This document shows positions 37,652 to 54,866 of a stretch of DNA of 64,000 nucleotides, piece after piece; position 1 is the stretch's first letter; the number at the start of each line of letters is the position of its first letter. Made by a program: the position numbers and the translations under genes. The notes under the pieces were generated by a model that did not search any database, was not told where the DNA came from, and was given only the letters and a program-made list of their open reading frames with translations. This DNA comes from Candidatus Gottesmanbacteria bacterium GW2011_GWA2_43_14 (GTDB taxonomy: Bacteria; Patescibacteriota; Microgenomatia; 2-02-FULL-39-11): the NCBI GenBank assembly GCA_000999095.1, contig LCFP01000004.1, forward strand, positions 80,930-144,929. The letters run 5' to 3'.

Positions 37652-37870
37652 TTACGTATTGAGGTTGGCAGTATAACCGGCCTTTTTGATGATTTCTTCG
37701 ATTTTCTTCTCGTCCAGCACTTCCGGATCAAATTCTACTTCCGTTAGGGCTTTGGCATAATTGGTTCTGGCTGATTTGATACCATGGTTATCTTCAAGCT
37801 CAAAATCAATGTTTATGGCGCAGGCAGTGCAATGCATATCCAGTATTTTCCAGACGGTTTTTTTAGTCAT
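37652..37870 (-). CDS. heavy-metal-associated (HMA) domain metallochaperone, CopZ-like
   Basis: MxCxxC motif (DMHCTACAINI). Confidence 0.75.
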   Translation of the reverse strand: MTKKTVWKILDMHCTACAINIDFELEDNHGIKSARTNYAKALTEVEFDPEVLDEKKIEEIIKKAGYTANLNT

Positions 37871-37874
37871 AATG

Positions 37875-38900
37875 CTAAATCACTTTGATGACTCCGTTAT
37901 ACATACCCATACTGCAGGAGAAAGTCAGGTCCTGGGGAATTTCCGGAGCAGTGAAAGACAAGCTTGTTTTACTACCCGTTCTGACGACTTTTTGGATATT
38001 TAATTTGGGGATAACGAAAGCCTGGATGCAGCCTTCTCCGTCATTATTAATAAGATTCAGTTTTACCTCGGACCCTTTTGCCACCGTAATATTTTCAGGT
38101 GAATACCCGCGTGAATTAAAGTAAATAGTGGCTTCCGAAACAGGCGTGGCAGCCTTGGCCAAAACCTGGCCGGAACAATTGCTTAAAACCGTACAGTTAA
38201 AATCTTTCCATAAATTATTAAGGGTGAAGTTGGAGCCCGACAAAACCGCGGCCGCATTAATGTTAAAAACAGCCAAAAAGATAATGGCAAAAGCGGCTAT
38301 TTTGCCAAACGAGGTTTGGAACAGGGAACTTAATTTGGTGGTTAATAAACCTAAAATAAAAAAGACGGGCGCAGTACCAAGAGTAAAAGCAAACATAATT
38401 ATGGCAGAATAAGCAGGGTTGGCTGAAACCAGTGCTAAAGCCATCATTGCCTGAGTGGTGCCGCAGGGGATAAAAATTGTCAAAGCACCCAAAAAAGCAG
38501 GTGCAAATAAATCACCGCTTCTCGATTGCCGGCGGATGATCCTCAACAGGAAGCGGGGAGGCTGGATAATGAAATAACGGAAAATGGGGTGAACATTCAA
38601 TAAATTAAGTGCAGTGCCGATCATAAAGATCCCGACGGCTATTTGCAGAAAGACTTGGGTTGAGACTGACAACCGGAAGAAAGAGCCGAAAATTCCCAGC
38701 AACGCACCCAAGACAGTATAGGCGATGATTTTGGCTATCAGGAAAGCTAATATCGGCCAAGCCCGTCCTTTGGTGGCGATACCTCTCAGTCTGTCTTCTT
38801 CATTCTGTACAAGTGTGGTTGCCAGCAGACCGCCCTGGACGGCCATGCAGGATAAACCGCCAGTAAGAAGCCCTGTTAAAAAAACGGTCCACAAATTCAT
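37875..38900 (-). CDS. membrane protein: DsbD_2/CcdA-like Cys-pair transmembrane domain fused to a C-terminal cupredoxin-like Cys/Met metal-binding domain
   Basis: TM region with conserved GGLSC and IPCG motifs. The extracytoplasmic C-terminal domain has a GEGC...FSCSMGMYNGVIKV motif. It is a paralogue of 45805..47643 but lacks the HMA domain. Confidence 0.55.
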   Translation of the reverse strand: MNLWTVFLTGLLTGGLSCMAVQGGLLATTLVQNEEDRLRGIATKGRAWPILAFLIAKIIAYTVLGALLGIFGSFFRLSVSTQVFLQIAVGIFMIGTALNLLNVHPIFRYFIIQPPRFLLRIIRRQSRSGDLFAPAFLGALTIFIPCGTTQAMMALALVSANPAYSAIIMFAFTLGTAPVFFILGLLTTKLSSLFQTSFGKIAAFAIIFLAVFNINAAAVLSGSNFTLNNLWKDFNCTVLSNCSGQVLAKAATPVSEATIYFNSRGYSPENITVAKGSEVKLNLINNDGEGCIQAFVIPKLNIQKVVRTGSKTSLSFTAPEIPQDLTFSCSMGMYNGVIKVI

Positions 38901-39132: not shown

Positions 39133-39558
39133 TCAGATTTTGCGTTTAAGTCGGATGAGATAAATTATACTCGCGAGATTGGAAAGAATTGCCAACAGTA
39201 AAATTTCTTTCTGGAATTGGATTAAGAGTGAAGTGAGAAGACTTAAGCCTAACAGCGGCAGGACATCAGTCAGATGATGGGCGCAGCAGGCGATCATACC
39301 CAGAGTCGAAGTTGAAGAATTGCCCACCATCATTTTACGGCTGCCCCCTTTAATTTTATTTTTTAAGCTGACATAAAGCCCGGATTGAATCCCGAAACCG
39401 GCAGAGAGTGAAGTCATGTAAGGCCAAAGTGTCGAAAATTGCCACCAGGCAGTTTCAAAAGAACCTGTCAGAAGTCTCATAAGGAAAAAATAAAAGGTCA
39501 AAAGAAAGGATGAAGCAACAATCCCCATGAAAATGGGGGAGGAGAGAAATTTAGTCAT
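39133..39558 (-). CDS. hypothetical membrane protein with an intramembrane ACCAHH motif
   Basis: 141 aa and 4 TM segments. A vicinal Cys pair followed by His-His (GMIACCAHHLTD). Confidence 0.45.
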   Translation of the reverse strand: MTKFLSSPIFMGIVASSFLLTFYFFLMRLLTGSFETAWWQFSTLWPYMTSLSAGFGIQSGLYVSLKNKIKGGSRKMMVGNSSTSTLGMIACCAHHLTDVLPLLGLSLLTSLLIQFQKEILLLAILSNLASIIYLIRLKRKI

Positions 39559-39840: not shown

Positions 39841-40302
39841 TCACCCCCTTTCCCCTTCAACTTTAAATTCCCTTCTCGGGATGCCTGATAAATTCTTAAT
39901 TATTATGGCGAAAGGAAGTTCAATTTTTTCAAAAACCGCCTTTGCTTTTTTATGATGGGTTTGTCCAGAAACTTCAATTTTTAGAGACGGATAAAGTCCT
40001 TCGTTTTTTTCAAGATAAATACCTTTCTGATAATCATAAGCATCCAGGTTGACATTATGGGTATCAAAATTCAAATTAAAATTCCAACCATCCTCATCCC
40101 CTCCGGCATAAGCGACGGAAACGCTGACCCCGCCGGCTGCACCGGCCGAAGGACTGACAACCACAGAGTCAGTGATTTGATTAGAAGTGATCAGGCTTGA
40201 GGTATCTGTATCTTTTGCTTTAGTTAGGGTAAATAGAAGAATAATAGCTAGAATCCCACTGATTAAGAATAAAAACCAATATTCCCAGGATATTTTTTTC
40301 AT
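39841..40302 (-). CDS. TM-anchored extracytoplasmic protein (possibly FixH/YtkA-like beta-sandwich)
   Basis: N-terminal signal anchor, then a 120-aa Gly/Ala-rich and beta-rich domain. Family assignment is speculative. Confidence 0.35.
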   Translation of the reverse strand: MKKISWEYWFLFLISGILAIILLFTLTKAKDTDTSSLITSNQITDSVVVSPSAGAAGGVSVSVAYAGGDEDGWNFNLNFDTHNVNLDAYDYQKGIYLEKNEGLYPSLKIEVSGQTHHKKAKAVFEKIELPFAIIIKNLSGIPRREFKVEGERG

Positions 40303-40318: not shown

Positions 40319-41260
40319 TCAGACGCCGCAGCCGCCGCCGCCTTCAACTTTGGGAAGGATGCCTTCCGACTGAAGTTCCTTGTTGATAGCCTGGTAACCG
40401 GCGCCACTCGAGTAAGGACTGCCTAATGCCTCCTTGGGATCTACATCCTGCCAATCCTCACCCTTTTTGCTTTTGAAGTACATGGCCAGTTCCACATAAG
40501 TCTGGGGGAACCACTGGGAATTTAAAAGCAGGGCTTTTTTGTATATTTCATTCCGGCTCATACCCTGGACAACGGCCAGCTCAATATAGCCCAGCATGGC
40601 CGCCCCGTGATTGCAGTCGGGAAAGTAGGTGGAATTGCCGCAGCAGGGCCGGTAAATATTTTGGGCAATTTCAATCACTTCCTTTTCCTGTTCGGGCGTT
40701 AACGGCAGGATAGGGAAACGGTTGAAAAGTTTACCGCCTTCCTCCTTTCCCAAAGTCCAACCGCCGGTTGAAGCGTAATTGCCGGAATCTTCCTTCATCG
40801 GCCCTTCTTCCAGAAATTTGGTTTTGTTGGCAATTCCCAGCGGCCAGAGGAGGTTGAGGATGATGGCATTGTTTTCTTTGGTGACGATTATCTTTTCGGA
40901 AGAATCCTTATCAAAAAGATCCGTAAATTCGGCAGGTAAACCTCCGCGGCTTTGATAGAGATCTAAAAATTTTTGCTTATCTATAGCGCCTGTCTCGACC
41001 ATTTTTTTGACGGTCTCACCAAAGGAGACACCGAGGTTGAATTTATCAGGCAGAACTTTTTGGGTTACTTCTGAAAGCAATTGATCGGACTTAATAGAAG
41101 CCGTTTTTTCTGCTGGTGTTTCACTTTCCGGATTAGTAGCTTTCCGGTAATTAGAAAGTTTCGGGATAAGCACAAACAATAACAGGCCGATCAAAAGTCC
41201 CGTGACAATACCGGTCAAATAAGATTGATGTTTATTTTCAGAATTATTTTTTTTCACCAT
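40319..41260 (-). CDS. TM-anchored extracytoplasmic protein with a PCCGNSTYFPDCNHG motif (uncharacterised)
   Basis: 313 aa with a single N-terminal TM segment. Conserved-looking Cys cluster (RPCCGNSTYFPDCNHGAAM) and a C-terminal GGGGCGV. No family recognised. Confidence 0.45.
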   Translation of the reverse strand: MVKKNNSENKHQSYLTGIVTGLLIGLLLFVLIPKLSNYRKATNPESETPAEKTASIKSDQLLSEVTQKVLPDKFNLGVSFGETVKKMVETGAIDKQKFLDLYQSRGGLPAEFTDLFDKDSSEKIIVTKENNAIILNLLWPLGIANKTKFLEEGPMKEDSGNYASTGGWTLGKEEGGKLFNRFPILPLTPEQEKEVIEIAQNIYRPCCGNSTYFPDCNHGAAMLGYIELAVVQGMSRNEIYKKALLLNSQWFPQTYVELAMYFKSKKGEDWQDVDPKEALGSPYSSGAGYQAINKELQSEGILPKVEGGGGCGV

Positions 41261-42059
41261 GGCCTACCTCCTTTATCATAATTTTGATAAATATAACCAA
41301 AAGGGCAATCAATAACAGGTCTATCAGGGGATTTCCCAGCCGATTGGACAGATTAAAGATAAATCTTCTAAGGGATTCTCCGTAGGCCATATTCTTATCC
41401 ATCTCAATTTTTCCCGTCAGAGCCATCAAAGCGATAATCACCGCCGAGACCATGAAAGTAACAGAAGCCAATATTTTCAGCGGTTTTTCCCAACTACTCT
41501 TGATTTTATAGAGGTATTTATTGCTCAGCTTTTCATAAAAAAGAGACAGGAAAAAAAGAGGGAAAACGATTCCTAAGACATAGGCTATTGAAACAATCAG
41601 GGAAGACAGAAGGGTCGGTGATAGTGAGGACAGGGTGATAGCGGCAAAAAGAACCGGGGCGCAGCAAGAGGAGGTGATACCGGAAAAAAGTCCCAATATA
41701 TAAGTTGAGAGGACAGTTGTTTCTTTGGGCATGGTGTAATGGGGCAGGGGAAGCATCAGTTTCACTTCAAATAGAGTCATCAACCCAACCAGAAACATCA
41801 CTAAAGCCCCAAGAAGATATGTCGTGGTATGGAATTTATCAAAGAAAGAGACGATAATCGAAGCGCCCAAAGCCACCGGTACCAGGATTGATCCCAAACC
41901 CGCGGCAAAAATCATCGTCAGAAAAACCACCCTTTTCCTATCTTTGAAAATTGTTCCCAAATAAGAAGGAAAAAGAAAAGTAATACAGCAGGGAGCAAAC
42001 AAGGCCACCATGCCGCCCAAAAAAGAGGCAGTCAGGGAAACTCCGAAGAAAAGATTCAT
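41244..42059 (-). CDS. CcdA/DsbD-like membrane protein with two vicinal Cys pairs
   Basis: Polytopic membrane protein. FAPCC in TM1 and SSCCAP in a later TM, at the positions where CcdA carries SPC/PC motifs. Confidence 0.5.
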   Translation of the reverse strand: MNLFFGVSLTASFLGGMVALFAPCCITFLFPSYLGTIFKDRKRVVFLTMIFAAGLGSILVPVALGASIIVSFFDKFHTTTYLLGALVMFLVGLMTLFEVKLMLPLPHYTMPKETTVLSTYILGLFSGITSSCCAPVLFAAITLSSLSPTLLSSLIVSIAYVLGIVFPLFFLSLFYEKLSNKYLYKIKSSWEKPLKILASVTFMVSAVIIALMALTGKIEMDKNMAYGESLRRFIFNLSNRLGNPLIDLLLIALLVIFIKIMIKEVGHGEKK

Positions 42060-42065
42060 AAGTAA

Positions 42066-42587
42066 TTATTCGACTGTGGCATTGATATTGAATATCAAGG
42101 TTTCATTTTCCGGGTCATTGGTGTTGAGTGAGGCTTGTCTGGTAACCAGTCCTTTGACCGGCATAATAAACGGCCGGTAAGTAACAAACAATTTGGCTGT
42201 CTCTCCCGGCGGCAGTTGAGCCTTCCAGTTGTTTTTTGAATGCATGGTAAATTCCGGACTAATGACTCCATTGATATCCAGTTTGGCAAATGTACAGTCG
42301 CAGGAAGTCGATAATTTATAGAGTTCCAAAGGCTTGGAGCCGTTATTTTTTATGCTGAATTCAGCTGTCCTCTCATCACTGACTTTCATCTTGCCCAATT
42401 CTTTTAAATTAGAATCAATTGAAGCCGCCGGTTTTTCCGTGTCACCTTTGGTATAAGAGATAGCATCTGATTGCGTGGCTCCCTTTCCTTCTTTAACGGC
42501 AAAGACAATAATCAGTAGGAATACCAGCAAGGTGAATCCGCCAATTACCAATAATATTAATTTTTCTCCTGAGAAGCGTTTGAACAT
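42066..42587 (-). CDS. DUF1573-domain protein (TM-anchored, extracytoplasmic)
   Basis: Signal anchor plus a DUF1573-like beta-sandwich region with an SCDCT motif (LYKLSTSCDCTFAKL). Confidence 0.55.
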   Translation of the reverse strand: MFKRFSGEKLILLVIGGFTLLVFLLIIVFAVKEGKGATQSDAISYTKGDTEKPAASIDSNLKELGKMKVSDERTAEFSIKNNGSKPLELYKLSTSCDCTFAKLDINGVISPEFTMHSKNNWKAQLPPGETAKLFVTYRPFIMPVKGLVTRQASLNTNDPENETLIFNINATVE

Positions 42588-42644: not shown

Positions 42645-45566
42645 CTATTCAAAAGCCATGGAGGAGCTGATTTTGGCAAAACCGCCGAAAATTATGCTGA
42701 AAAGAATCAGCATCGCAAGCGGAGCAATCAAAGACAAGTAATTCCGTTTGCCCGGCCGGAAATATTTTAAAGTCAGGGAATTGGTAACGACGGAGATGGA
42801 GGATAAAGCCATGGCCAAACCTGCCAATTCGGGTTTAAGCACAAGCCCCATGAAAGCGAAAGCCCGGGCAGCGACGGGGATGCCAACGATGTTATAAAAG
42901 AGGGCGAAAAACATGTTTTGCTTAATTTTACTCATCGTATCGTGGGAAAGATTGATGGCAGTAACTACATCCCGCAGGTCGTTTTTGACGATGACGATAC
43001 CGCCTGTTTCCATCGCGACATCAGTTCCCGAACCCATGGCAATCCCTAAATCAGCCTGAGCTAATGCCGGCGCATCATTGATGCCGTCGCCGACCATGGC
43101 CACAATTTGTTTTTTATCCTGAAGTTTTTTGACTTCATTGGCTTTGTCTTCAGGTAAAACTTCCGCCAGAATATTGGTAATGCCGACCTGATCAGCAATA
43201 GCCTGGGCAGTCCGTTCATTGTCGCCGGTGATCATATAAACTTCGATATTTCTTTTTTTAAGCTGATCGATAGCTTCCCGGCTGGTTTCTTTGACGGTAT
43301 CGGCAACCGCAATCGCTCCCAGGATCTGATTTTTATCTGCCAAAAGCATGGCGGTTTTACCCATGTTTTCCAATCTAATCAGTTTGTCGTGAAGTTGACC
43401 GAGCTCAACTTTGGCGACATCTGTCATCAGTTTCCGGTTGCCCATATAATAAGTTTCGCCTTTGATGGTGCCGGTGACTCCGTGACCGGGTATGGCCTTA
43501 AAATTCTCGACATTCTTCATGAGCATATCTTTTTCCCGGGCAAAGCCTACAATGGCTTCCGCTAAAGGATGTTCAGAAGATTTTTCCAATGAAGCGGCAA
43601 TTTCCAGGATTTGAGCCTCTCCGGTTTCAGTGTAGCTTTCGATATCGGTCACAATCGGTTTGCCGTTGGTTAAAGTACCGGTTTTATCGAAAATGATGGT
43701 TGTTATCCGGCAAATCTTTTCCAAGGGTTCGCCGCCTTTTATTAAAATGCCGTGTTCCGCGCCCTTACCAGTACCGACCATCAAAGCGGTCGGAGTCGCC
43801 AAGCCCAAGGCGCAGGGACAGGCAATGACGATAACGGCCGTGAATGCCATCAGGGCAAATGATAAGGAAGCCCCAAAGATCAGGTACCAGACGAGAAAGG
43901 TGCCGATGGCGATAATGATGACGGCCGGGACAAACCAGGCTGAAATGCGGTCGGCGAAGGCCTGAATGGGTGCCTTGGAACCCTGGGCTTCCTCAATTAA
44001 ACGGATGATTTGGGCTAGCGTGGTTTCGCTGCCGACCCGGGTTGCCTCAAATTCAAAGCTGCCCATTTTATTGATGGTTGCCCCGACCACATTATCACCG
44101 CTGTTTTTTTCAACAGGTATGCTTTCGCCGGTAATCATCGATTCATCGACGGAAGATGAGCCTCTGATAATTTTGCCGTCAACCGGGATTTTTTCGCCCG
44201 GCCGGACCAGCAAAATGTCGCCTTTGACCACCTGATCCAAAGGAATATCAACCGTATTGCCATTTCTTATAACTCTGGCGGTTTTTGGCTGAAGGCCCAT
44301 CAATTTTTTTATGGCATCTGATGTTTTACCCTTGGCTCTAAGTTCCAGCCATTTTCCCAAAAGAACAAAAGTAATCAAAAAGGCGGATGTTTCAAAATAC
44401 AATTCCGGTATTTTTTCTATCACCGGCCCGAGGAGAGTACCTGTTAGGGAGAAATAACTCAAATAATTGAAAGCGCTGTAAAAATAGGCAGCCGAGGTGC
44501 CGATGGCTATCAGACTGTCCATATTAAAGGTTTTCATCCTGAGAGCGGACCACATGCCTTTATAGAAACCGTAACCCAAAACAAACTGCACCGGGGTCGA
44601 CAGGATGAAAGAGAGGACGCCGACATAAGGATTAAAGAACAGTTTGCCGATTGCACCCGGGAAAAAGTCGAACAGCATGAAATAAAGCAATGGCAAGCTC
44701 AGGATCAGGCTGGAAATGAACTTCGAAAAAAGCATTCTAGTTTCTTCCTGACGTTTTCGCGTTTCAAATTCGGTATCTTTTTGATCAATCTGACTGGCTT
44801 TATAACCGCTGTTTTCCACCGCTTTGATCAGATTTTCGACAGTCGCCTGGTTAGAGTCAAAGTCAACCAGCGCCTTTTCGGCGGCAAAATTGACGTTGGC
44901 GGAAGAGACGCCATCAACCTTTTTAAGGGAACGTTCAATCAGTTGGGCACAGGAAGAGCAGTGCATACCGGAGAGAGATAACGAAACTCTTTTGCGTATA
45001 TCAGGCGTTTCAGCCGGAGTACTTATTTCAGGAATTTGTGATTTTTTTGCCGGTATTTGATCAGGTTTATTCGACAAGACGTTATCTTGGGAGGGGAGAG
45101 GGTTGAATAGCGGGGCATTATCCAAAGATCCGGAAAGTTTTGACATAAAATTCTTCACTTCTCCATTACCGAAAGATTGTTGGTATTCGGATTTTTGGAA
45201 TTTGCTGATTTTACCATCAAAAAATGGTTCACCATGATCATTTAGAAAAACACGCCCTTGCGCTTCAACTCTTGATTCAATTTTAACCGGAACACTGCTT
45301 CTTGTCACTTTTGCCCCAGCGGTGCTTTTATTAGCTTCCGTTCCAACACTTTCTTCCTGGAGTGCTTCATAGCCTGCCCGTTTGACCGCTTCGATCACTT
45401 CGGTCAGGCTGTTTTTACTTTGGTCAAGAGTGAGAACGGCCAGCTGTTTTTGGAAACTGACATTTATATCGGAAACACCCGGTAAAGCCGCCAGTTCCTC
45501 TTTCGTAACCACTTCACAGGAGCGGCAATGCATGCCTTTGATATTTAATTTCAGCTTTTTTTTCAT
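42645..45566 (-). CDS. copA: copper-translocating P1B-type ATPase with two N-terminal HMA domains
   Basis: Two MxCxxC HMA domains ([18 protein letters not shown]), TM6 CPC ([12 protein letters not shown]), DKTGTLT, the YN and MxxSS TM signatures, and GDGINDAP. Confidence 0.9.
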
Positions 45567-45579
45567 TAAGAAATTTTCT

Positions 45580-45792
45580 TCAGTTTATAACCTGATAATC
45601 CGTACCTTCCAGTGATTTCTTAATTTCCGTAAGATTAATATCACGTCTGGCGGTAACTTGCGCCTCACCGGTCAGGGAAACGTTAAAATCCAAAACACCT
45701 TCGATTGAATTGACTCTGCGTTTGATAAGTTTCAGACAAGCGTCACAGGTGATGCCGGTAACGTAGAATTTTAGCGTATTTATATCGGACAT
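45580..45792 (-). CDS. copZ: HMA-domain copper chaperone
   Basis: GITCDAC MxCxxC-type motif. 70 aa. Immediately upstream of copA. Confidence 0.8.
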
Positions 45793-45804: not shown

Positions 45805-47643
45805 TTAAACAACCTTAATAATGCCGCGGGGTACCCCCATGGCGCAGGTAATCGGGTATTCACCGGGAGTTTTCGGGGTGAATTCAAGAACTATCGTTTC
45901 TCCCTTTTTAAGAAATTGGGGATTATCGGCTAAACCGGGGACGGCAATTGTTGCCATACAGCCGGAACCGTTGTCTTTGACTTCAATTTCCATTCTGACG
46001 GGCTTTCCCGCATTAACTTCAAAAGCATTTGGACTGATATCAGTATTTTGGGTATACACAGTTTTAATGATTTGCTCATCTTTATTTTCTTGAGCTTTCA
46101 CCGGAGTGACATTTGTGTTTTGGACCTGCTTTTGCCCTCCACCTCCGCAACCGCAGCCTCCGCTACCGCAAGACGCACCTCCGGCAGAATTAGCGGTTTT
46201 AACAGCGGCGGTGTCATCGGGGAGAGTCGCAGCCTGTACTTGAATACCATTGACATCATTAACCACCCTGATCGATCCGGAAAACATGCCCATACTGCAG
46301 GTAAATCGGATAACGCCTTCTTCGGAAGGCGTAAACTCAATCACATTTTCACCAGGATGGAGCAATTTTTGCACGCCGATTTTGTCGGCCACAATTGAAG
46401 CGGCACAGGTGTTGGGATCTTTGGAATCGATAACCCAGCGGACAGGTACGCCTTTTTTAACCGTGAAGACTTTCGGATTGTAACCTCCGGCATCCTGGAC
46501 CATACGGATGACCTGTTTGCCGTTTTCCAGTTGAACTCCTTCTGTATCAGCTGCTGCCACAACAGTTGTTTTCCCGGGGAAATTAAAATAACCCGGATTT
46601 AAGCCGGTCAGATTCAGGCCATTGTTAAGATTGAAAAGACTTAAGACGATAACAACGACACCGGCAATCCGGAAAAAACTTTGAGCAAAAGCTCCTTTGA
46701 CCAGCGATGTCAAACCGCCAATTCCCAGAAGTCCAGGTGCTGTCCCCAAGGCAAAAGTGCCCATGATTAAAGCGCCCGAAACAGGATTGCCTGTCGTCAT
46801 GGCAAAAAGCTGCATCGCCTGGGTGAAGCCGCAGGGCAGAAAAAAGGTCAGGCCTCCCATAAAGACAGAATTTTTATTGCTGTATTCAGCCTCTTTTTTT
46901 GAATTAATTCTCAAAATTTTTCCCACTCCGGCAGGCAGAGTCAGTTTAAAATCTTCCAGTCTGGGGGAAAGCCCGGTTAGCTGTAAACCCATCAAAAGCA
47001 TAACCATGCTTACAAAAACCGTCAGCATACCAAGGCCGAAACCGGACAGCTGGAAAAAAGAACCAAACCAACCGATTATCGCACCGAAAAAAAGATAAGA
47101 ACCTATCCTGCCAAGATTAAAAAACAGATGCGGTTTGAATTTTTCAAGAGGAGTAGCTAAAGAATGCTTTTCGGCAAACCTGGCAGAAACACCCAAAACC
47201 AAGCCGCCGATTAAAGCCATGCAGGTGGAGAAGCCGGCTGTTAACCCGATTAAAAGCACTACTAAAAGGCTGGAAGGATGATTGGAGATGGCCGGCAGGG
47301 CAATTTTAATGCCGAAAATGTCTAGGAGAACATAGCCTAAAAAGACGGCAATCAGAAAAATTATTATTTCCTGATAAATATTAAAATCGCGGGTAAATAA
47401 AGGTTTTTTTTCGGGTAGGCCGATTGAATAGCCTGCTCCTTCGATAGTCGAGTTGACCGCTTCATAGTTTAGATTACCTTTATAAGCGATTTCCGCTAAG
47501 CCCTTTTTTTGGCTGACGGCAACTTTTTTGACACCCTCAAGAGAGCAGAGTTCACCTTCAATCAAAAGCTCGCAAGAACGGCAATGCATGCCTTTTATCG
47601 GAACGGATGCTGTTTTTATCATGTTAAAAATCTTACCAGTCAA
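45805..47643 (-). CDS. fusion protein: N-terminal HMA domain + DsbD_2/CcdA-like Cys-pair membrane domain + Cys/Gly-rich linker + two cupredoxin-like Cys/Met domains
   Basis: HMA domain ([10 protein letters not shown]). TM core with GFSTC and FFLPCGFTQAM motifs. Linker ASCGSGGCGCGGGG. Two repeated extracytoplasmic domains ending FTCSMGMFSGSIRVV and ITCAMGVPRGIIKVV, each with an upstream conserved Cys (NTCAAS / GSGCMA). Confidence 0.6.
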   Translation of the reverse strand: MTGKIFNMIKTASVPIKGMHCRSCELLIEGELCSLEGVKKVAVSQKKGLAEIAYKGNLNYEAVNSTIEGAGYSIGLPEKKPLFTRDFNIYQEIIIFLIAVFLGYVLLDIFGIKIALPAISNHPSSLLVVLLIGLTAGFSTCMALIGGLVLGVSARFAEKHSLATPLEKFKPHLFFNLGRIGSYLFFGAIIGWFGSFFQLSGFGLGMLTVFVSMVMLLMGLQLTGLSPRLEDFKLTLPAGVGKILRINSKKEAEYSNKNSVFMGGLTFFLPCGFTQAMQLFAMTTGNPVSGALIMGTFALGTAPGLLGIGGLTSLVKGAFAQSFFRIAGVVVIVLSLFNLNNGLNLTGLNPGYFNFPGKTTVVAAADTEGVQLENGKQVIRMVQDAGGYNPKVFTVKKGVPVRWVIDSKDPNTCAASIVADKIGVQKLLHPGENVIEFTPSEEGVIRFTCSMGMFSGSIRVVNDVNGIQVQAATLPDDTAAVKTANSAGGASCGSGGCGCGGGGQKQVQNTNVTPVKAQENKDEQIIKTVYTQNTDISPNAFEVNAGKPVRMEIEVKDNGSGCMATIAVPGLADNPQFLKKGETIVLEFTPKTPGEYPITCAMGVPRGIIKVV

Positions 47644-50315: not shown

Positions 50316-51318
50316 TTATTTCAGATATTTGTCAAAAAATTGAAGGGATCTGGCGGAAATTTGCGCCCAGCCTAAATTGCGAAAATTGTGGTCCTGTCCG
50401 GGATACTCAAAATACTCAACCTGTTTACCTGCCTGTTTCAATGCTTCGTTCAGCTCTTTTGACCAGGCGGGATCCACTTCGGTATCAAAAAGCCCCTGGT
50501 GGAGGCTTACCGGAGTTGAAATGTAATTTAGAAAATCAATAGGGGAGGCACTTTCGGTGCCTTGATTGTTATTTGCGACTGGGCGTCTACCTCCGTAGAA
50601 TCGGGCATTATCGGAAACACGGGCGCTGGTGGGAGCCCATAAGACGAGAGCTTTGATTTTATCGGTTGCTTCAACCACCCTCAAGCCAACCTCTCCGCCC
50701 TAACTGTGCCCCCACATGCCGATTTTTTCCAGGTTAAGGAAAAGACCGTCAGATTGGTCTTGGGGATTCTTTAGATTTTTTAAGGAGGCAAGAAGGTTTA
50801 AGACGTCAATGGCATATTCGCCGGTGTCCGCGTGATACCCGCCCGTCATCCTCACTATTGCCGTGGCCACGATAGTCTGAAGCCAGGGTCAGATAGCCGT
50901 TGCGGGCCATAATATCCGCCATGGTTTGTGTGCCGTCGCCGCTTTTAAATGAGGTATTATTGAAATAGCCGTGATTGAGGATGATAACGGGAAAACCTCC
51001 GGCAGGGGATTCACCAAAGGGTATATTCATACGGCCGTAAATTTTCAGGCCGTCTGAAGAATATGAAAAAAGGTAACCGCTGTAAGAACCGTTGCGCTCA
51101 ATTTCATTTTCTATTTTAAACTCCCCATCTCCGTATGAGCGTTCCCGCAGGGAGTCAATAAAAGAAGGCTCTTTGTTTTCTTGAGGATCTGAAAAGTTTT
51201 TATTTGCGGATTCCGGTGAAGCTTCCTGTCCATTATTGCCCTGATAGAACTTTTGGAGAAGACTGAAACCGATTAAAACCGGAATAAAAAATAATAAGGG
51301 AAAGAAACGTTTCATCAA
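50316..51318 (-). pseudogene. secreted alpha/beta-hydrolase (dienelactone hydrolase/peptidase S9-like) disrupted by a frameshift and an in-frame TAG
   Basis: N-terminal part (50806..51318) has a signal peptide and runs to YRGHGNSE. C-terminal part (50316..50684) carries the Asp/His region (GQDHNF). The bridging sequence in a third frame reads ...IGMWGHS*GGEV..., i.e. the GxSxG nucleophile motif interrupted by TAG (plus strand cta at 50700..50702). A frame change lies near 50860. Confidence 0.6.
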
Positions 51319-51497
51319 CTAGCATAATTTTGGGGATCAGCTTCAAAGGTTTTTTGGCAGTTTTCCGAGCAGAAATAGTAGGTTTTGCCATCATGGTTGC
51401 TTTTATATTCCGCTTTTTCAGGATCGACCATCATTTTGCAAACCGGATCTTTAACCTTGTTTTTATTGGCGGAAAATAATTTATCTAAGAAACTCAT
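51315..51497 (-). CDS. YHS-domain metal-binding protein
   Basis: DPVCKMMVD...YYFCSENC is the YHS/TRASH motif. Start placed at the ATG at 51497, which forms an ATGA overlap with the upstream DUF305 stop. Confidence 0.7.
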   Translation of the reverse strand: MSFLDKLFSANKNKVKDPVCKMMVDPEKAEYKSNHDGKTYYFCSENCQKTFEADPQNYAS

Positions 51498-51865
51498 GGA
51501 TTTGCCTCCCATTCTTTTTGCCACATTTTCATTTGTTCAATTTCGTTCTCTTGAGCTTCTATTATATCATCTGCCAAATTTTTGATCTCTTCATGCATGC
51601 CTTTTGCTTTCGCTTCTTTGGCCATTTCAATGGCGCCTTCATGATGGACCATCATCGAGTTCATGAAAGCCATATCAAAATCTTCCCCTTCAGCCTTTTC
51701 CAGTGATTGCATCATTTCATTCATGCTGGAATTCATGGTCATCATGCCGCTGCCACCCATCATATTAGCAGGTTGAGCCTGCTGTCTGTTGTAACCTGTT
51801 ATGAGAACTGTTAACAGAATCCCGGCGATAAAAGTTGTAATTGCCAATAAATAATTATTTTTCAT
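51494..51865 (-). CDS. DUF305-family protein (Met/His-rich, copper-resistance-associated)
   Basis: Signal anchor. Met-rich stretch (MMGGSGMMTMNSSMNEMM) and the DUF305 motif MMVHHEGAIEMA. SD sequence GGTGA upstream. Confidence 0.7.
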   Translation of the reverse strand: MKNNYLLAITTFIAGILLTVLITGYNRQQAQPANMMGGSGMMTMNSSMNEMMQSLEKAEGEDFDMAFMNSMMVHHEGAIEMAKEAKAKGMHEEIKNLADDIIEAQENEIEQMKMWQKEWEANP

Positions 51866-51879
51866 TTCAAATCACCGCC

Positions 51880-51900
51880 ATCTATAGATAAGTATCTATA
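51880..51900. promoter_or_regulatory. palindromic operator-like site in the DUF305 promoter region
   Basis: ATCTATAGAT (10-bp perfect palindrome) overlaps TATAGATA-ag-TATCTATA (8-2-8 inverted repeat), 15-37 nt upstream of the DUF305 ATG. A related AGATA-tt-TATCT palindrome lies at 50223..50234. Confidence 0.4.
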
Positions 51901-51949
51901 AATATTAGCATAACAAAGATTAAGATTCCATGAAGAAAGACAGATTCAG

Positions 51950-52612
51950 TCAGACCCGATGGTGATCGATGCCGCGGTAGGCTTTAATAAATTTTTCTAT
52001 TCTCTCTTCATTAAACTCATTGAATTTATCCAACTTGGTCCAGGCTGTCAGGGCGATTTTAGTATCAAGCTGAGGGTAGGGGGCAAGTATTACTTTATCC
52101 TTATATTTTTTTATGACGGCTGTTAATCCGGCAACCAGTTTTTGGCATTCATCTTGCCCTTCGGCACTGTCAGTGGCCTCTTTTTGGCTGTCCCCATCCG
52201 GCGTGCAATTATACTGTACCATAATCCCGCCGTCCTCCAGATTATGAAGCTGGAGTTCGTCAGGAATAGGGGACCCGCTTACTCCCCAGGGGGCTTTATT
52301 ATTCACGTGGGTACCTGAAGTCGGAGGCAGGGAATTGTAAGATTCGTGGGTATCGGTGATGTTTTGGATATGTTCATTGCCTAAGGTGGGGACAAATTCC
52401 CCGGGCTTCGGTTTAGAGGCTTCTCTGATAAACCAGTATCCGCCAGCAAGAAACACCAAACAAGCGGCAATAATTATTCCGTATTTCTGCAACTTACCCA
52501 GCCGCAGCTGTTTATTCATCTGTTCCCGGTAAAATGCACGTTTTATCTTCCTGCGTTCTTTTTTGGGTAATCCTTCAGGTAAATCAGGTCTGTTTTTCAT
52601 AACAGATTTCAC
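51950..52612 (-). CDS. DUF3105-domain protein
   Basis: N-terminal TM segment, then LGNEH...PPTSGTH...HNLEDGG motifs typical of DUF3105. Confidence 0.65.
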   Translation of the reverse strand: MKSVMKNRPDLPEGLPKKERRKIKRAFYREQMNKQLRLGKLQKYGIIIAACLVFLAGGYWFIREASKPKPGEFVPTLGNEHIQNITDTHESYNSLPPTSGTHVNNKAPWGVSGSPIPDELQLHNLEDGGIMVQYNCTPDGDSQKEATDSAEGQDECQKLVAGLTAVIKKYKDKVILAPYPQLDTKIALTAWTKLDKFNEFNEERIEKFIKAYRGIDHHRV

Positions 52613-52725
52613 AAACTTTCAGTAAGGTGTTCTGAATTATTAGTAAGGACAAAAATATAGGGAAAAAGCCTAAAAAGAAATAAGGATAAACTTAAGAAAC
52701 CGGTGAAATATCCATAAATTTATAT

Positions 52726-53466
52726 TTATTTTAAGGCTGCATCAATCATAGGCTTGATACTTTCATAGGGAAGAGCCCCGGGTATAAGCTGGGTACTGCC
52801 ATTTTCAGTCAGAATGATTGTACCGGGAGTTCCAGTTACACCTTCTTCACTTCCTTTGGCCATCTGGTCCTGCACTTTTTGGGTATACTTACCCGAGTCA
52901 AGACATTTTTGGAATTTGGTCTGATCAACCCCTACTTCATTGGCCAGGGAACCCAGTTTGTCCAGCGCAAAGCCGGTGCCATTGGAGGTCGTACGCTCAA
53001 AAATGGCATCAATATATTTCCAAAAAACGTCATTGCCTCCCAATTCGTTGACACACCAGCCTGCCTCCGCTTCTTTTTGTGCATTCTGATGAAAGTTTAA
53101 AGGGTAATCACGATACACCCATTTTACTTTATCACCGTATTCTTTCATGACCTGCTGCATGGTGGGATGAAAATTTTTACAGTAGGGACATTCCAGATCA
53201 GAGTATTCAATAAGTGCTACTTTGGCGTTTTTGTTGCCTCTCACGCGGTCATCACTTTCCAATTCCGGCTTTTTGGCTGCAGGTTGGGGAGAGGGGATTT
53301 GCGCGGAAACGGTGTCGTTTCCTCCTGTCCCGGCCTGGATTTCCGCCACGCCCGGGTTTCCTTTTTCCAGAAGTTTAACTTTGGTGTAAAGGGAACCGAT
53401 TGCAAACGAAGCGACAATTAGAAGGGCAACCAGAATTAATGAGCTTTTAGATTTTACTTCAGACAT
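52726..53466 (-). CDS. DsbA-family thiol:disulfide oxidoreductase (BdbD-like)
   Basis: Signal anchor. Thioredoxin-fold CxxC (ECPYCKNF). Confidence 0.8.
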   Translation of the reverse strand: MSEVKSKSSLILVALLIVASFAIGSLYTKVKLLEKGNPGVAEIQAGTGGNDTVSAQIPSPQPAAKKPELESDDRVRGNKNAKVALIEYSDLECPYCKNFHPTMQQVMKEYGDKVKWVYRDYPLNFHQNAQKEAEAGWCVNELGGNDVFWKYIDAIFERTTSNGTGFALDKLGSLANEVGVDQTKFQKCLDSGKYTQKVQDQMAKGSEEGVTGTPGTIILTENGSTQLIPGALPYESIKPMIDAALK

Positions 53467-53468
53467 AT

Positions 53469-53485
53469 TACTACAAAGTGTAGTA
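53469..53485. promoter_or_regulatory. BlaI/CopY-type operator (perfect 7-3-7 palindrome TACTACA-aag-TGTAGTA) abutting the dsbA-like start codon
   Basis: Perfect inverted repeat located 2 nt upstream of the ATG (minus strand) of 52726..53466. A near-identical site lies upstream of the BlaI/CopY-like gene (54817..54833). Confidence 0.5.
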
Positions 53486-53510
53486 GTAAAGCTGACGGTT
53501 TGTCAATAGG

Positions 53511-54446
53511 TCAAAGCGGGAGTATATAAAGTCCGGAACATGAATGGTGGCATTCTGTATTCGGGCGGCAAAAAGATTTATGTCCCCCGTTTTCCGGACC
53601 GGTTTCCGCAGTTGACACTGAAGATAAAGCAAACACCAGAAAAATTATAAGAGTGAAAAAGGTTTGGAGGAGATTTTTAAGTGAGGGTTTTTTGGCGGGA
53701 ACTTTCAGATTAAGAAGCGCCTTTATTCTGGCCTCAAGAGTTTCGTACGCGTTTAATCCGGCAACCGCCGGCAGGGGAGCGGGTTTGTATGTTATGAGTT
53801 TTTTAAGAACATCTGACAGACAGTATTGGTCATTTTTTTGCCGGATGGCCTGCCGGTCAGCCTCAAGTTCGCGATTCAGTCTGTAATTTCCTATCAGATC
53901 TGAAACAAGCGGAAAGAAGGGAAATAAGCATTGGGTTAGATCGGCCAACAAAAGGGTGGCCGTATCTTTGTTTTCCAAATGGTATTTTTCGTGGCGCAGA
54001 ATGACTGCCAGTTCCTTCAGGCTAACCAGCCTGATAATTCCGGTGGTTATGAATATCCTAGGGTTTAAAAAGCCAAAGCAAAAAGCGGTCGGAGCATTTT
54101 TTGGGAGGATCATTACTTTATTTTCCAAACCTAAATCTTTAATAAGTCTTCTCGTCCGTTTATTCCCGGTAACCAGCGGGGAAAGGGTGCGGCTAAAGCG
54201 GTATATTTTAAAGAACGAGATAAGCAGTTTTATGGCAGTATGGAGTATCAGTAGGGACAAAAATATAAAAATAAAATCTCCAACAAGAGGGCTTGAGCCA
54301 AATGATATGTTTTTTACCATTTCCCGACAGTAATAAAGCGCATGATGAAAAAAAACCGGAAAAAACCTAAACAATATTAACAGATAACCTGATATAAGAA
54401 AGGTAAAAAGAAATGAAAAAACAAAAAGATATTTATTTATTTTCAT
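53511..54446 (-). CDS. M56-family peptidase, BlaR1/MecR1-like transducer protease domain without a penicillin-binding sensor domain
   Basis: 4 TM segments plus a zinc-protease motif HEKYHLENKD (compare BlaR1 HELYHxxRxD). It overlaps the upstream repressor gene by 14 bp. 311 aa, and there is no C-terminal PBP domain. Confidence 0.7.
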   Translation of the reverse strand: MKINKYLFVFSFLFTFLISGYLLILFRFFPVFFHHALYYCREMVKNISFGSSPLVGDFIFIFLSLLILHTAIKLLISFFKIYRFSRTLSPLVTGNKRTRRLIKDLGLENKVMILPKNAPTAFCFGFLNPRIFITTGIIRLVSLKELAVILRHEKYHLENKDTATLLLADLTQCLFPFFPLVSDLIGNYRLNRELEADRQAIRQKNDQYCLSDVLKKLITYKPAPLPAVAGLNAYETLEARIKALLNLKVPAKKPSLKNLLQTFFTLIIFLVFALSSVSTAETGPENGGHKSFCRPNTECHHSCSGLYILPL

Positions 54447-54813
54447 CCGGATTGGCCAATAATTTTAACAGGCGCTTTTTTTTATCCTTGGGGAGCCGTT
54501 CGATCGATTGGGCAAAAGAGGCAACCGCCGAATCGCCAAAGGAAGAGAAAAACTGGCGCATAAATGACCGGGCGGCGCTTTTACCGTAATCGACTTTTGA
54601 AATTTTGGGAAAGTAGTACAGGCGGGAATCATGAGTTTCCTTCAAGACTAAGCCTTTTTGATAAAGGCGGGAAAGGATGGTGGCCACGGTAGTATAAGCA
54701 AGTTTTTTCTTAAGGTTGATTTTTCTCACGACATCACGCACAGAACAATCACCGCATGCCCAGACAATTTCCATAATCAGTTGTTCCAGATGGCTTAATG
54801 ATTTGACGGACAT
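54433..54813 (-). CDS. BlaI/MecI/CopY-family transcriptional repressor
   Basis: Penicillinase-repressor winged-helix N-terminus (LSHLEQLIMEIVWACGDCSVRDVVRKI...TTVATILSRLYQKGLV) and a C-terminal dimerisation helix. Confidence 0.8.
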   Translation of the reverse strand: MSVKSLSHLEQLIMEIVWACGDCSVRDVVRKINLKKKLAYTTVATILSRLYQKGLVLKETHDSRLYYFPKISKVDYGKSAARSFMRQFFSSFGDSAVASFAQSIERLPKDKKKRLLKLLANPDENK

Positions 54814-54816
54814 ATT

Positions 54817-54833
54817 TACTACAGAGTGTAGAA
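54817..54833. promoter_or_regulatory. BlaI/CopY-type operator (TACTACA-gag-TGTAGAA), autoregulatory position
   Basis: TACA/TGTA dyad typical of BlaI/MecI/CopY boxes, 3 nt upstream of the repressor ATG. It shares a roughly 20-nt conserved block (CTACAC-T-y-TGTAGTAA-ATATGTC) with the site at 53469. Confidence 0.5.
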
Positions 54834-54866
54834 TAGGATTAATTAAATTTCAACAAGGAGATTGGA

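Follow-up and report, generated by a model that had tools for sequence, protein, structure and literature searches.

An HMA-DsbD_2-cupredoxin fusion protein of Patescibacteria and its possible role as a transmembrane Cu(I) relay

The protein considered here is encoded at positions 45805..47643 (minus strand) of a 64,000-nucleotide stretch of DNA, hereafter the window, taken from contig LCFP01000004.1 of Candidatus Gottesmanbacteria bacterium GW2011_GWA2_43_14. It joins in one chain a CopZ-like HMA domain, a six-helix membrane core of the DsbD_2 family and two cupredoxin domains related to the Cu(I)-binding protein CupA of Streptococcus pneumoniae. What it carries over the membrane is probably copper, or else reducing power used in the handling of copper. 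We tentatively propose, with a probability of about 45%, a transmembrane relay of three stations, in which Cu(I) is passed between thiolates and which acts alongside CopZ and the copper ATPase CopA. The proposal is drawn from sequence comparison and predicted structures.

Domain organization of the fusion protein

The gene and its parts, with transmembrane (TM) helices numbered along the chain, are as follows.

45805..47643, minus strand: whole fusion gene, in the order HMA, TM0, DsbD_2 core, cupredoxin domain 1 (Cup1), Cys/Gly linker, cupredoxin domain 2 (Cup2); from the open reading frame (ORF), Pfam and homologue alignment
47428..47604, minus strand: N-terminal CopZ-like HMA domain, residues 14-72, with GMHCRSC, predicted cytoplasmic; from Pfam HMA
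47308..47367, minus strand: extra helix TM0, residues about 93-112, joining the cytoplasmic HMA to the N-out core; from the AlphaFold2 (AF2) helix 87-109 and Lys/Arg (K/R) counts
46609..47268, minus strand: six-TM DsbD_2 core, residues about 126-345, with C141 (GFSTCMA, TM1) and C271 (LPCGFTQ, TM4); from Pfam DsbD_2 and AF2
46261..46539, minus strand: Cup1, residues about 369-461, ligands C413, C449, M451 and M453, predicted extracytoplasmic
46096..46260, minus strand: disordered linker, residues 462-516, containing ASCGSGGCGCGGGG; from low predicted local distance difference test (pLDDT) values and invariant columns
45808..46095, minus strand: Cup2, residues about 517-612, with C562, M563, C600 and M602; Pfam best stretch 517-604

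The ORF codes for 612 amino acids from a TTG start. The true start is probably the ATG at 47622, giving 605 residues, because the consensus of the homologues, MxKTTVPIKGMHC, begins at the equivalent of M8. Three Pfam families are matched above their gathering scores: HMA at residues 14-72 (E=7e-10, 39.5 bits against 24.8), DsbD_2 (PF13386) at residues 129-336 (E=1.9e-31, 109.9 bits against 24.9) and Cupredoxin_1 in two stretches (E=2.6e-22). The motifs GMHCRSC, GFSTCMA, LPCGFTQ, ASCGSGGCGCGGGG, FTCSMGMFSGSIRVV and ITCAMGVPRGIIKVV can be read along the chain. A preliminary description of this DNA, made from the letters alone, had reported a 612-residue protein that opens with a CopZ-type MxCxxC domain and continues into a multi-TM core with the GFSTC and PCG motifs of the DsbD_2 type; the ORF, the motifs and the Pfam matches agree with it on both points. 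It had also placed the Cys/Gly linker before both cupredoxin domains, but in fact the linker lies between Cup1 and Cup2.

In the AF2 model the HMA domain has the β-α-β-β-α arrangement (strand 9-17, helix 22-33, strands 38-44 and 49-55, helix 60-69) with pLDDT values of 86-93. The N-terminus is thus of the HMA, CopZ-type by Pfam threshold, MxCxxC motif and modelled fold. Its cysteines, C21 and C24, are invariant in 48 homologues.

Membrane core and topology

The TM helices were taken from AF2 models together with K/R counts; calling by a simple hydropathy threshold was too noisy. The full-length model has seven membrane helices, at residues 87-109, 126-159, 165-196, 201-223, 256-284, 287-314 and 318-346. 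Helix 126-159 is broken at 138-139, just before C141, and helix 256-284 is broken at 269-271, at C271 itself. In a model of the core alone the break in TM4 recurs and TM1 stays one helix (7-40).

The two membrane cysteines, C141 and C271, do not vary in the 48 homologues or in relatives of other phyla, and they hardly vary among 111 diverse representatives. It is important to note that only about 20 core positions are conserved from the ultra-small bacteria of the Candidate Phyla Radiation (CPR) to Shewanella, and that both cysteines are among them.

With loops defined from the hydrophobic spans, the fusion protein has 17 Lys and Arg residues on the HMA side of the membrane and 2 on the cupredoxin side. 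The means over the 48 homologues are 16.4 and 1.6, and the smallest difference in any of them is 12. By the positive-inside rule the HMA and cupredoxin domains therefore lie on opposite sides of the membrane, as the preliminary description had supposed. A paralogue of the protein (37875..38900, presented below) has six helices with the same charge pattern and starts directly with TM1; TM0 is absent from it and its alignment begins at residue 125 of the fusion protein. The small HMA proteins coded beside the paralogue and beside the fusion gene have no signal peptide. From the K/R pattern, the six-helix paralogue starting at TM1 and these HMA partners, the core is predicted to be N-out/C-out, with the HMA domain inside and the CupA-like domains outside. 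TM0 would be needed in the fusion because the fused HMA domain must stay cytoplasmic with the CupA-like domains outside.

An internal duplication of the core as 3+3 TM helices was not significant (hhalign, E=0.11). Structural comparison of the core recovered no convincing solved relative, and no solved CcdA was among the matches. One locus (L054) had appeared to hold an in-frame fusion of the gene with CopA, which would imply a cytoplasmic cupredoxin domain; this was rejected, as a stop codon separates the two ORFs.

The outer domains and their relation to CupA

When the whole fusion protein was searched against PDB sequences, residues 369-461 matched CupA of S. pneumoniae (4F2E/2MRY, E=5e-15) and, in CopA of that species, the metal-binding domain of cupredoxin type (4F2F, E=8e-10); these are the closest known relatives of the outer domains. 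In the HMMER alignment C413, C449, M451 and M453 fall on CupA chain positions 49, 86, 88 and 90, which are C74, C111, M113 and M115. In CupA, C74 and C111 form the high-affinity bis-thiolate site 1, and C74, M113 and M115 make up site 2, which has low affinity (PMC5646241; PMC7558416). All four ligands are present in Cup1 and in the corresponding domain of the paralogue (C291, C329, M331 and M333). Because of this homology to a Cu(I)-bound crystal structure, the Cys/Cys/Met residues are predicted to form one common site, and the convergence on a metal site expected in the preliminary description is borne out by alignment with the crystallographic Cu(I) ligands. The residues C413, C449, M451 and M453 of Cup1 and C562, C600 and M602 of Cup2 are invariant across the 48 homologues. 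The C...CxMGM motif is also invariant in members from other phyla and nearly so in the 111 diverse representatives.

The two domains share 36% identity (E=1e-12). Cup2 matches CupA weakly (E=1e-3), retaining both cysteines and one methionine; the last methionine is missing, the fourth ligand position being Val or Ile (V604 in the fusion protein), so that the motif reads CxMxV. The earlier statement that both repeats end in CxMxM thus stands for Cup1 and the paralogue domain, but not for Cup2, and the second conserved cysteine, put about 45 residues upstream, is at a spacing of 36 (C413-C449) and 38 (C562-C600). Cup2 is also weakly similar to filamin repeats (E=3e-4). The linker has pLDDT values below 50 at residues 464-507. 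Its cysteines C492, C497 and C499 are invariant within the two-domain subfamily, and by a strict pattern the linker is seen in about 20 of 79 species loci.

Judged by sequence and modelled fold, the outer domains are homologues of CupA. However, the single N-terminal anchor, the cytoplasmic face and the cupredoxin-bearing CopA partner of CupA are not found here. The streptococcal CupA is small, has a single N-terminal helix and faces the cytoplasm; in the fusion protein the domain is C-terminal to seven TM helices, predicted outside and sometimes duplicated. The ATPase beside it carries two HMA domains in place of the cupredoxin metal-binding domain of the streptococcal CopA. According to a 2020 review, CupA itself is restricted to a few streptococci and works on the cytoplasmic side (PMC7558416), unlike the domain presented here, which occurs across Patescibacteria and in several other phyla.

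The paralogue and the split form of the module

The same module is present in the window a second time, as two genes.

37875..38900, minus strand: paralogue of 341 amino acids, six-TM DsbD_2 core (C18, C146) and one CupA-like domain (C291, C329, M331, M333); from Pfam
37652..37870, minus strand: small HMA protein of 72 amino acids with DMHCTAC, directly downstream of the paralogue; from Pfam HMA, E=3.7e-11

The paralogue is 32% identical to the fusion protein over core and domain (E=1e-44). It matches DsbD_2 (106 bits) and one Cupredoxin_1 and has no TM0; it is also without an HMA domain, just as the preliminary description had it. That description omitted the 72-residue HMA gene directly after it, which is the separate-gene equivalent of the fused HMA domain. 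The paralogue and this gene would together be an unfused version of the same machine.

The paralogue matches more than 5000 clusters, and many of its CPR homologues have a precomputed match to PF02683. At 50% clustering the type has 3185 representatives, 261 of them with E<=1e-30. Among the 111 diverse representatives, DsbD_2 is matched in all, Cupredoxin_1 in 101, DsbD_TM (PF02683) in 33 (best match E=2.7e-13) and HMA in 3.

The pair of a DsbD_2-Cupredoxin_1 gene and a small HMA gene, also found in CPR, occurs in plasmid metal islands of Tsukamurella, Deinococcus, Chlorohelix, Streptomyces and Mycolicibacterium, that is in Actinomycetota, Deinococcota and Chloroflexota. In all unfused cases examined with an intact gene, from five phyla, the HMA gene is directly downstream. 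The islands outside CPR usually also contain a P-type ATPase, a CopY/BlaI-type or MerR-type regulator and CcdA/TlpA genes; canonical CcdA/TlpA genes are present in 3 of the 6 intact non-CPR metal islands examined and TlpA alone in two more. On a Tsukamurella plasmid (NZ_LR134469.1, locus L082, 7001..9882) the pair stands directly upstream of merA, followed by a multicopper oxidase. This merA lacks an N-terminal HMA domain, and in the Tsukamurella lineage the module may serve mercury uptake. On plasmid pSbal01 of Shewanella baltica (locus L088, 4851..5543) a bare DsbD_2 protein of 230 amino acids is found at the end of a ccoNOQP-fixH-ccoI-ccoS cluster. It has the TM cysteine pair of the fusion core, which suggests a role of the DsbD_2 family in copper supply to cbb3 oxidase.

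Distribution in Patescibacteria and association with a copper ATPase

The fusion gene is followed by two genes of copper handling.

45580..45792, minus strand: small cytoplasmic HMA protein of 70 amino acids with GITCDAC, lacking a signal peptide and coded between fusion gene and ATPase gene; from Pfam HMA
42645..45566, minus strand: P1B-1 Cu(I) ATPase of 973 amino acids, with two HMA domains and CPC, YN and MALSS motifs; from Pfam and TIGR01511 (score 632.8 against a cutoff of 397)

The gene order, therefore, is fusion gene, 70-residue HMA gene and 973-residue ATPase gene. A CopA-type Cu(I) P-type ATPase is adjacent to the module in 81 of 81 CPR loci, mostly directly downstream, and in 36 of the 81 a small HMA gene stands between them (tblastn). 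The HMA domain is part of the same chain in 76 of the 79 CPR species loci; in these 79 the CxMx motif occurs once in 44 and twice in 35. Between the two N-terminal HMA domains of the ATPase, at residues of about 70-190, there is an unusually long stretch of about 120 residues without a Pfam match; homologues of the ATPase have 1106-1117 residues.

The preliminary description had called the fusion unusual. On the contrary, it is near-universal in Patescibacteria: the protein matches more than 5000 clusters at 90% identity, and all 120 fusion clusters listed contain HMA, DsbD_2 and Cupredoxin_1, with every organism name given belonging to CPR/Patescibacteria. A scan of one genome per species gave at least 592 genomes with a homologue, the best 80 of which are essentially all Patescibacteria (Microgenomates, Parcubacteria, Saccharibacteria, Gracilibacteria, WWE3 and Berkelbacteria). 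The closest among the matches listed is from a metagenome-assembled genome of Gottesmanbacteria (L014), with 87% identity and the whole gene order conserved, including the paralogue. Two homologues of 713-719 amino acids (P0016, P0017) carry an extra filamin-type domain (PF00630), and in one locus (L001) a DsbA-like gene adjoins the module.

The fusion protein and its relatives are catalogued in databases under the wrong name, "sulfite exporter TauE/SafE family protein". The query core did not match TauE (PF01925), DsbD_2 being its sole match at E<=10; judged from these profiles, the label is a misnomer. The domain order is thus already in the catalogues, but does not form a named, characterised family. 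No paper joining DsbD_2/PF13386 with cupredoxin was found in the literature.

Proposed mechanism

The domains and their conserved ligands, the topology predicted by the positive-inside rule, the homology to CupA and the near-obligate link with HMA and a Cu ATPase are established. In the mechanism that we propose, Cu(I) would be handed by thiolate ligand exchange from the HMA domain to the membrane cysteine pair and from there to the outer CupA-like site. The first station would be the cytoplasmic CopZ-type HMA domain with its CxxC motif, held at the membrane by TM0. The second would be the six-TM DsbD_2 core, with the invariant cysteines on TM1 and TM4 within the membrane. The third would consist of one or two outer CupA-type domains, each with a Cys2 high-affinity and a Met low-affinity Cu(I) site, and with the Cys-rich flexible linker between them. 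Such a relay would operate together with the adjacent CopZ-like chaperone and the Cu(I) P-type ATPase. We incline to an outward direction, either exporting Cu(I) or charging an extracytoplasmic buffer with it, on account of the resistance-island setting of the genes. It is possible, if somewhat doubtful, that the DsbD scaffold has been re-used in this way to carry a metal ion rather than electrons, as an ATP-independent transmembrane Cu(I) carrier, with ligand exchange from HMA to the Cys pair to the CupA-type site.

We favour this relay chiefly because a metallochaperone-type HMA domain is near-obligate, fused or next door, in five phyla. This partner argues against a thioredoxin-fed electron shuttle, since such a shuttle needs no metallochaperone domain. 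In addition, a thiol-reductant role appears to be already covered by the CcdA/TlpA genes of several islands and by a CcdA-like gene (41244..42059) in the present operon. The three invariant sets of soft ligands, namely the HMA cysteines inside, C141 and C271 in the membrane and Cys2Met2 outside (joined in the two-domain subfamily by the three linker cysteines), speak for the relay. So do the invariable ATPase adjacency and the position of the bare Shewanella core after ccoI-ccoS, the Cu-delivery ATPase genes for cbb3 oxidase. A bioinformatic study predicted COG2836 proteins (HMA, DsbD_2 and DUF2318) in the copper-responsive CsoR regulon of gut Firmicutes (PMC4938975), which agrees with the relay, as does the placing of the DsbD family in the LysE superfamily, mostly metal or amino-acid carriers (PMC4608589).

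Several points weigh against the relay. The arrangement of the TM1 and TM4 cysteines is exactly that of the redox-active pair of CcdA and DsbD. Since this layout is accompanied by PF02683 matches in 33 of the 111 relatives, a thiol-disulfide shuttle would explain the core equally well. Invariance of the methionines that adjoin the TM cysteines is limited to CPR. Under external copper stress, a carrier that has no evident source of energy would admit copper, and no functional study of the fusion family was found in the literature. We infer metal binding by the membrane cysteines, as opposed to disulfide exchange alone, and likewise the transfer itself with its direction and energy source. The preliminary description had already pictured a metal ion handed between the HMA domain and an outer Cys/Met site through the intramembrane cysteines. 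This picture holds in part: topology and metal site agree with it, and the relay is plausible as a prediction.

Alternative explanations

The main alternative, a somewhat unlikely one, is that the membrane cysteine pair moves reducing equivalents and not metal out of the cytoplasm, as in DsbD, and keeps the outer CupA-like cysteine pair reduced. The core would then be an analogue of CcdA, and the cupredoxin domain an analogue of DsbD-alpha or ScsC; the reduced domains would trap Cu(I) released by CopA or act as a recyclable Cu(II) reductase. The idea is attractive because C74 and C111 of CupA, having reduced Cu(II), have to be reduced again, by what PMC5646241 calls a "currently unknown source". 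Thiols outside the cell require a supply of reductant, and CcdA/TlpA/DsbA genes are regular in copper islands. The core belongs to DsbD_2, 33 of its 111 sampled relatives match PF02683, and its invariant cysteines are on TM1 and TM4 as in CcdA and DsbD. The DsbD family is also tied to copper tolerance (PMC4608589), and in an ammonia-oxidising archaeon DsbD-family genes were copper-responsive, in a study whose authors speculated on Cu(I) binding (PMC7785015). However, this explanation leaves without a purpose the HMA domain, which is fused or adjacent in essentially every case. The known DsbD/CcdA proteins use general thioredoxin. Moreover, the query core has no PF02683 match even at E<=10, the PC motif is found on TM4 only, no thioredoxin-fold domain is fused, and separate CcdA-like genes are already present in several such islands and in this operon.

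Two further explanations keep the metal but change what the protein does with it. It is improbable that the relay runs inward, the outer CupA-like domain capturing copper, possibly after Cu(II) reduction, and passing it over the TM cysteine pair to the HMA domain and CopZ and then to the ATPase, which would metallate cuproproteins outside the cytoplasm, following the pattern of the CcoA-CopZ-CcoI route; in mer-type islands this path would bring in Hg(II) for MerA, and its parts would then resemble MerP, MerT and NmerA in their roles. The bare core in the Shewanella cco cluster would fit, as copper transits the cytoplasm in clusters of this type (PMC7558416), and so would the Tsukamurella pair upstream of the HMA-less merA. 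FtrB and EfeO also came up as structural neighbours. An outer β-sandwich binder with a polytopic permease has precedents in uptake, such as CopC-CopD/YcnJ and the cupredoxin-type EfeO and FtrB with Ftr1-type permeases. Against import stand the absence of a merA homologue from the window and from the 81 CPR loci, a homologue of multicopper oxidase (the only cuproenzyme searched for) near the module in only 1 of 81 loci, and a resistance-like context with a CopY/BlaI-type repressor, a second ATPase, DUF305 and plasmid metal islands; to import copper and then re-export it would also be futile in a periplasm-less cell. It is very improbable that the CupA-like domains are simply tethered outer acceptors or buffers of Cu(I) for CopA, like CusF or CopL, with the HMA domain docking the protein to CopA and the conserved TM cysteines being structural. 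The adjacency of CopA in every locus agrees with such a role, and the number of cupredoxin domains, which varies from one to two and in some proteins is accompanied by a filamin-like domain, suggests a modular outer sponge. But a six-TM core would be superfluous for an anchor, CupA itself being held by one helix. The retention of both TM cysteines among the few core positions kept from CPR to Shewanella, and the existence of the core without a cupredoxin domain in Shewanella, also speak against it.

Comparison with known systems

The core is related to that of CcdA, DsbD-beta and ScsB (PF02683, TC 5.A.1), with which it shares the cysteines on TM1 and TM4, the N-out/C-out six-TM arrangement and links to copper tolerance (ScsB, cutA2/dsbD). 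Since PF02683 is matched by a part of the relatives but not by the query, this kinship is real but distant. Unlike CcdA and DsbD, the fusion protein has no thioredoxin-fold domain, and its cytoplasmic partner is an HMA metallochaperone domain; unlike the DsbD-alpha/thioredoxin module, its outer domain is a cupredoxin with a predicted Cu(I) site.

The preliminary description had drawn an analogy with MerP-MerT. It holds in function only, in that a metal binder on one side, a membrane cysteine pair and an HMA acceptor on the other side are common to both, and one homologue, that of Tsukamurella, is beside merA. As a matter of family membership it fails. The MerTP_fusion model (NCBIfam NF033556) gave 35.6 bits against a cutoff of 180, from the HMA part only, and the lack of merA in the window and the CPR loci also led us to reject a mercury reading for the CPR genes. 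MerT has three TM helices with a CC pair in TM1. Its membrane part is not homologous to that of the fusion protein, in which the HMA domain is cytoplasmic and the outer binder a cupredoxin. The mycobacterial Hg transporter MerH (pMM23) was tried as a DsbD-like relative and rejected; it is a MerC-family protein without similarity to the paralogue.

The CopC and CopD families gave no Pfam match to the fusion protein at E<=0.01. CopC-CopD/YcnJ, EfeO(Cup)-EfeU and FtrB-FtrC belong to other membrane families (CopD; Ftr1/ILT) and have no cytoplasmic HMA domain. The ligands of CopC-CopD/YcnJ, EfeO and FtrB are His, Met and carboxylate, in contrast to Cys2Met2 in the fusion protein. The COG2836 membrane proteins of Firmicutes have the backbone of HMA and DsbD_2 in common with it; however, their outer domain is DUF2318 and not CupA-like. 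They are also uncharacterised, and the literature search found COG2836 in one paper only.

Neighbouring genes

Directly after the Cu ATPase gene, 42066..42587 (minus strand) codes for an anchored DUF1573 Ig-like protein with STSCDC, which also matches the OS_HP2 (seleno)protein model; a DUF1573 gene is present in the flanks of 19 of the 81 loci. The following gene, 41244..42059 (minus strand), codes for 271 amino acids with about 6 TM helices and two pairs of cysteines, one in an APCC close to the start and one in an SSCCAP within the latter half. Its product has no Pfam match and a weak NCBIfam match to the DsbD-like part of selenoprotein TsoB (E=0.0025); by its sequence it resembles a divergent shuttle of the CcdA/DsbD type that bears CC pairs. 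The gene is kept beside the CopA module in 15 of 81 CPR loci.

Three membrane proteins without a family match are coded further downstream. The one at 40319..41260 (minus strand) is anchored, has 313 amino acids, contains PCCGNSTYFPDCNHG and terminates with GGGGCGV, a Gly/Cys tail that recalls the linker in the fusion protein; its gene recurs downstream of CopA and DUF1573 in Microgenomates, in 16 of 81 loci. The gene of the 153-residue anchored protein at 39841..40302 (minus strand) turned up only in L014, the closest relative. The 141-residue protein at 39133..39558 (minus strand), with CCAHH, is coded between the CopA operon and the paralogue and is kept in L014.

A second group of copper genes lies on the other side of the fusion gene.

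51494..57161, minus strand: second copper-type gene set

It includes a P1B ATPase with an N-terminal HMBD (54867..57161), a BlaI/CopY-type repressor (54433..54813), an M56 peptidase (53511..54446) and a DsbA-like protein (52726..53466, 5 kb from the fusion gene), as well as DUF3105 and DUF305 proteins. The CopY/M56 pair is also found on Streptomyces plasmids, together with CcdA, a peroxiredoxin-family gene, DsbD_2-Cup, HMA and ATPase. The adjacent short ORFs at 50316..50684 and 50806..51318 (minus strand) correspond to the C- and N-terminal parts of alpha/beta hydrolases (S9/DLH, S15/S33) and may represent a pseudogene or a single gene that a frameshift has broken in two. Scans of the DNA around the genes for tRNA and Rfam families found nothing. 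The promoter scan gave no clear signal (28 promoter-like sites against 19.6 expected), and terminator-like sites were below expectation.

Significance

The module is an uncharacterised, widely distributed copper-homeostasis unit, made of known parts in a combination not yet studied. Present accounts of copper traffic over the bacterial cytoplasmic membrane rely on P1B ATPases for export and on a small number of importers (CcoA/CalT, CopD). A module so regularly tied to an HMA chaperone, a CupA-like outer domain and a Cu ATPase would add a missing component, which could be either a second route for Cu(I) or the long-sought supply of reductant for CupA-type sites. As a Cu(I) carrier family it would be a new class of bacterial copper transporter, near-universal in Patescibacteria, present also in metal islands of Actinomycetota, Deinococcota and Chloroflexota, and with its core only in cbb3 oxidase assembly clusters. 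The bare core in the ccoGHIS clusters could bear on the copper supply of that oxidase. The CupA-type cupredoxins would be extended from a streptococcal curiosity to a broad extracytoplasmic module, and the misleading "sulfite exporter TauE/SafE" annotation would be corrected on thousands of genes. A function would thereby be given to one of the few conserved metal-handling operons in the reduced genomes of CPR bacteria.

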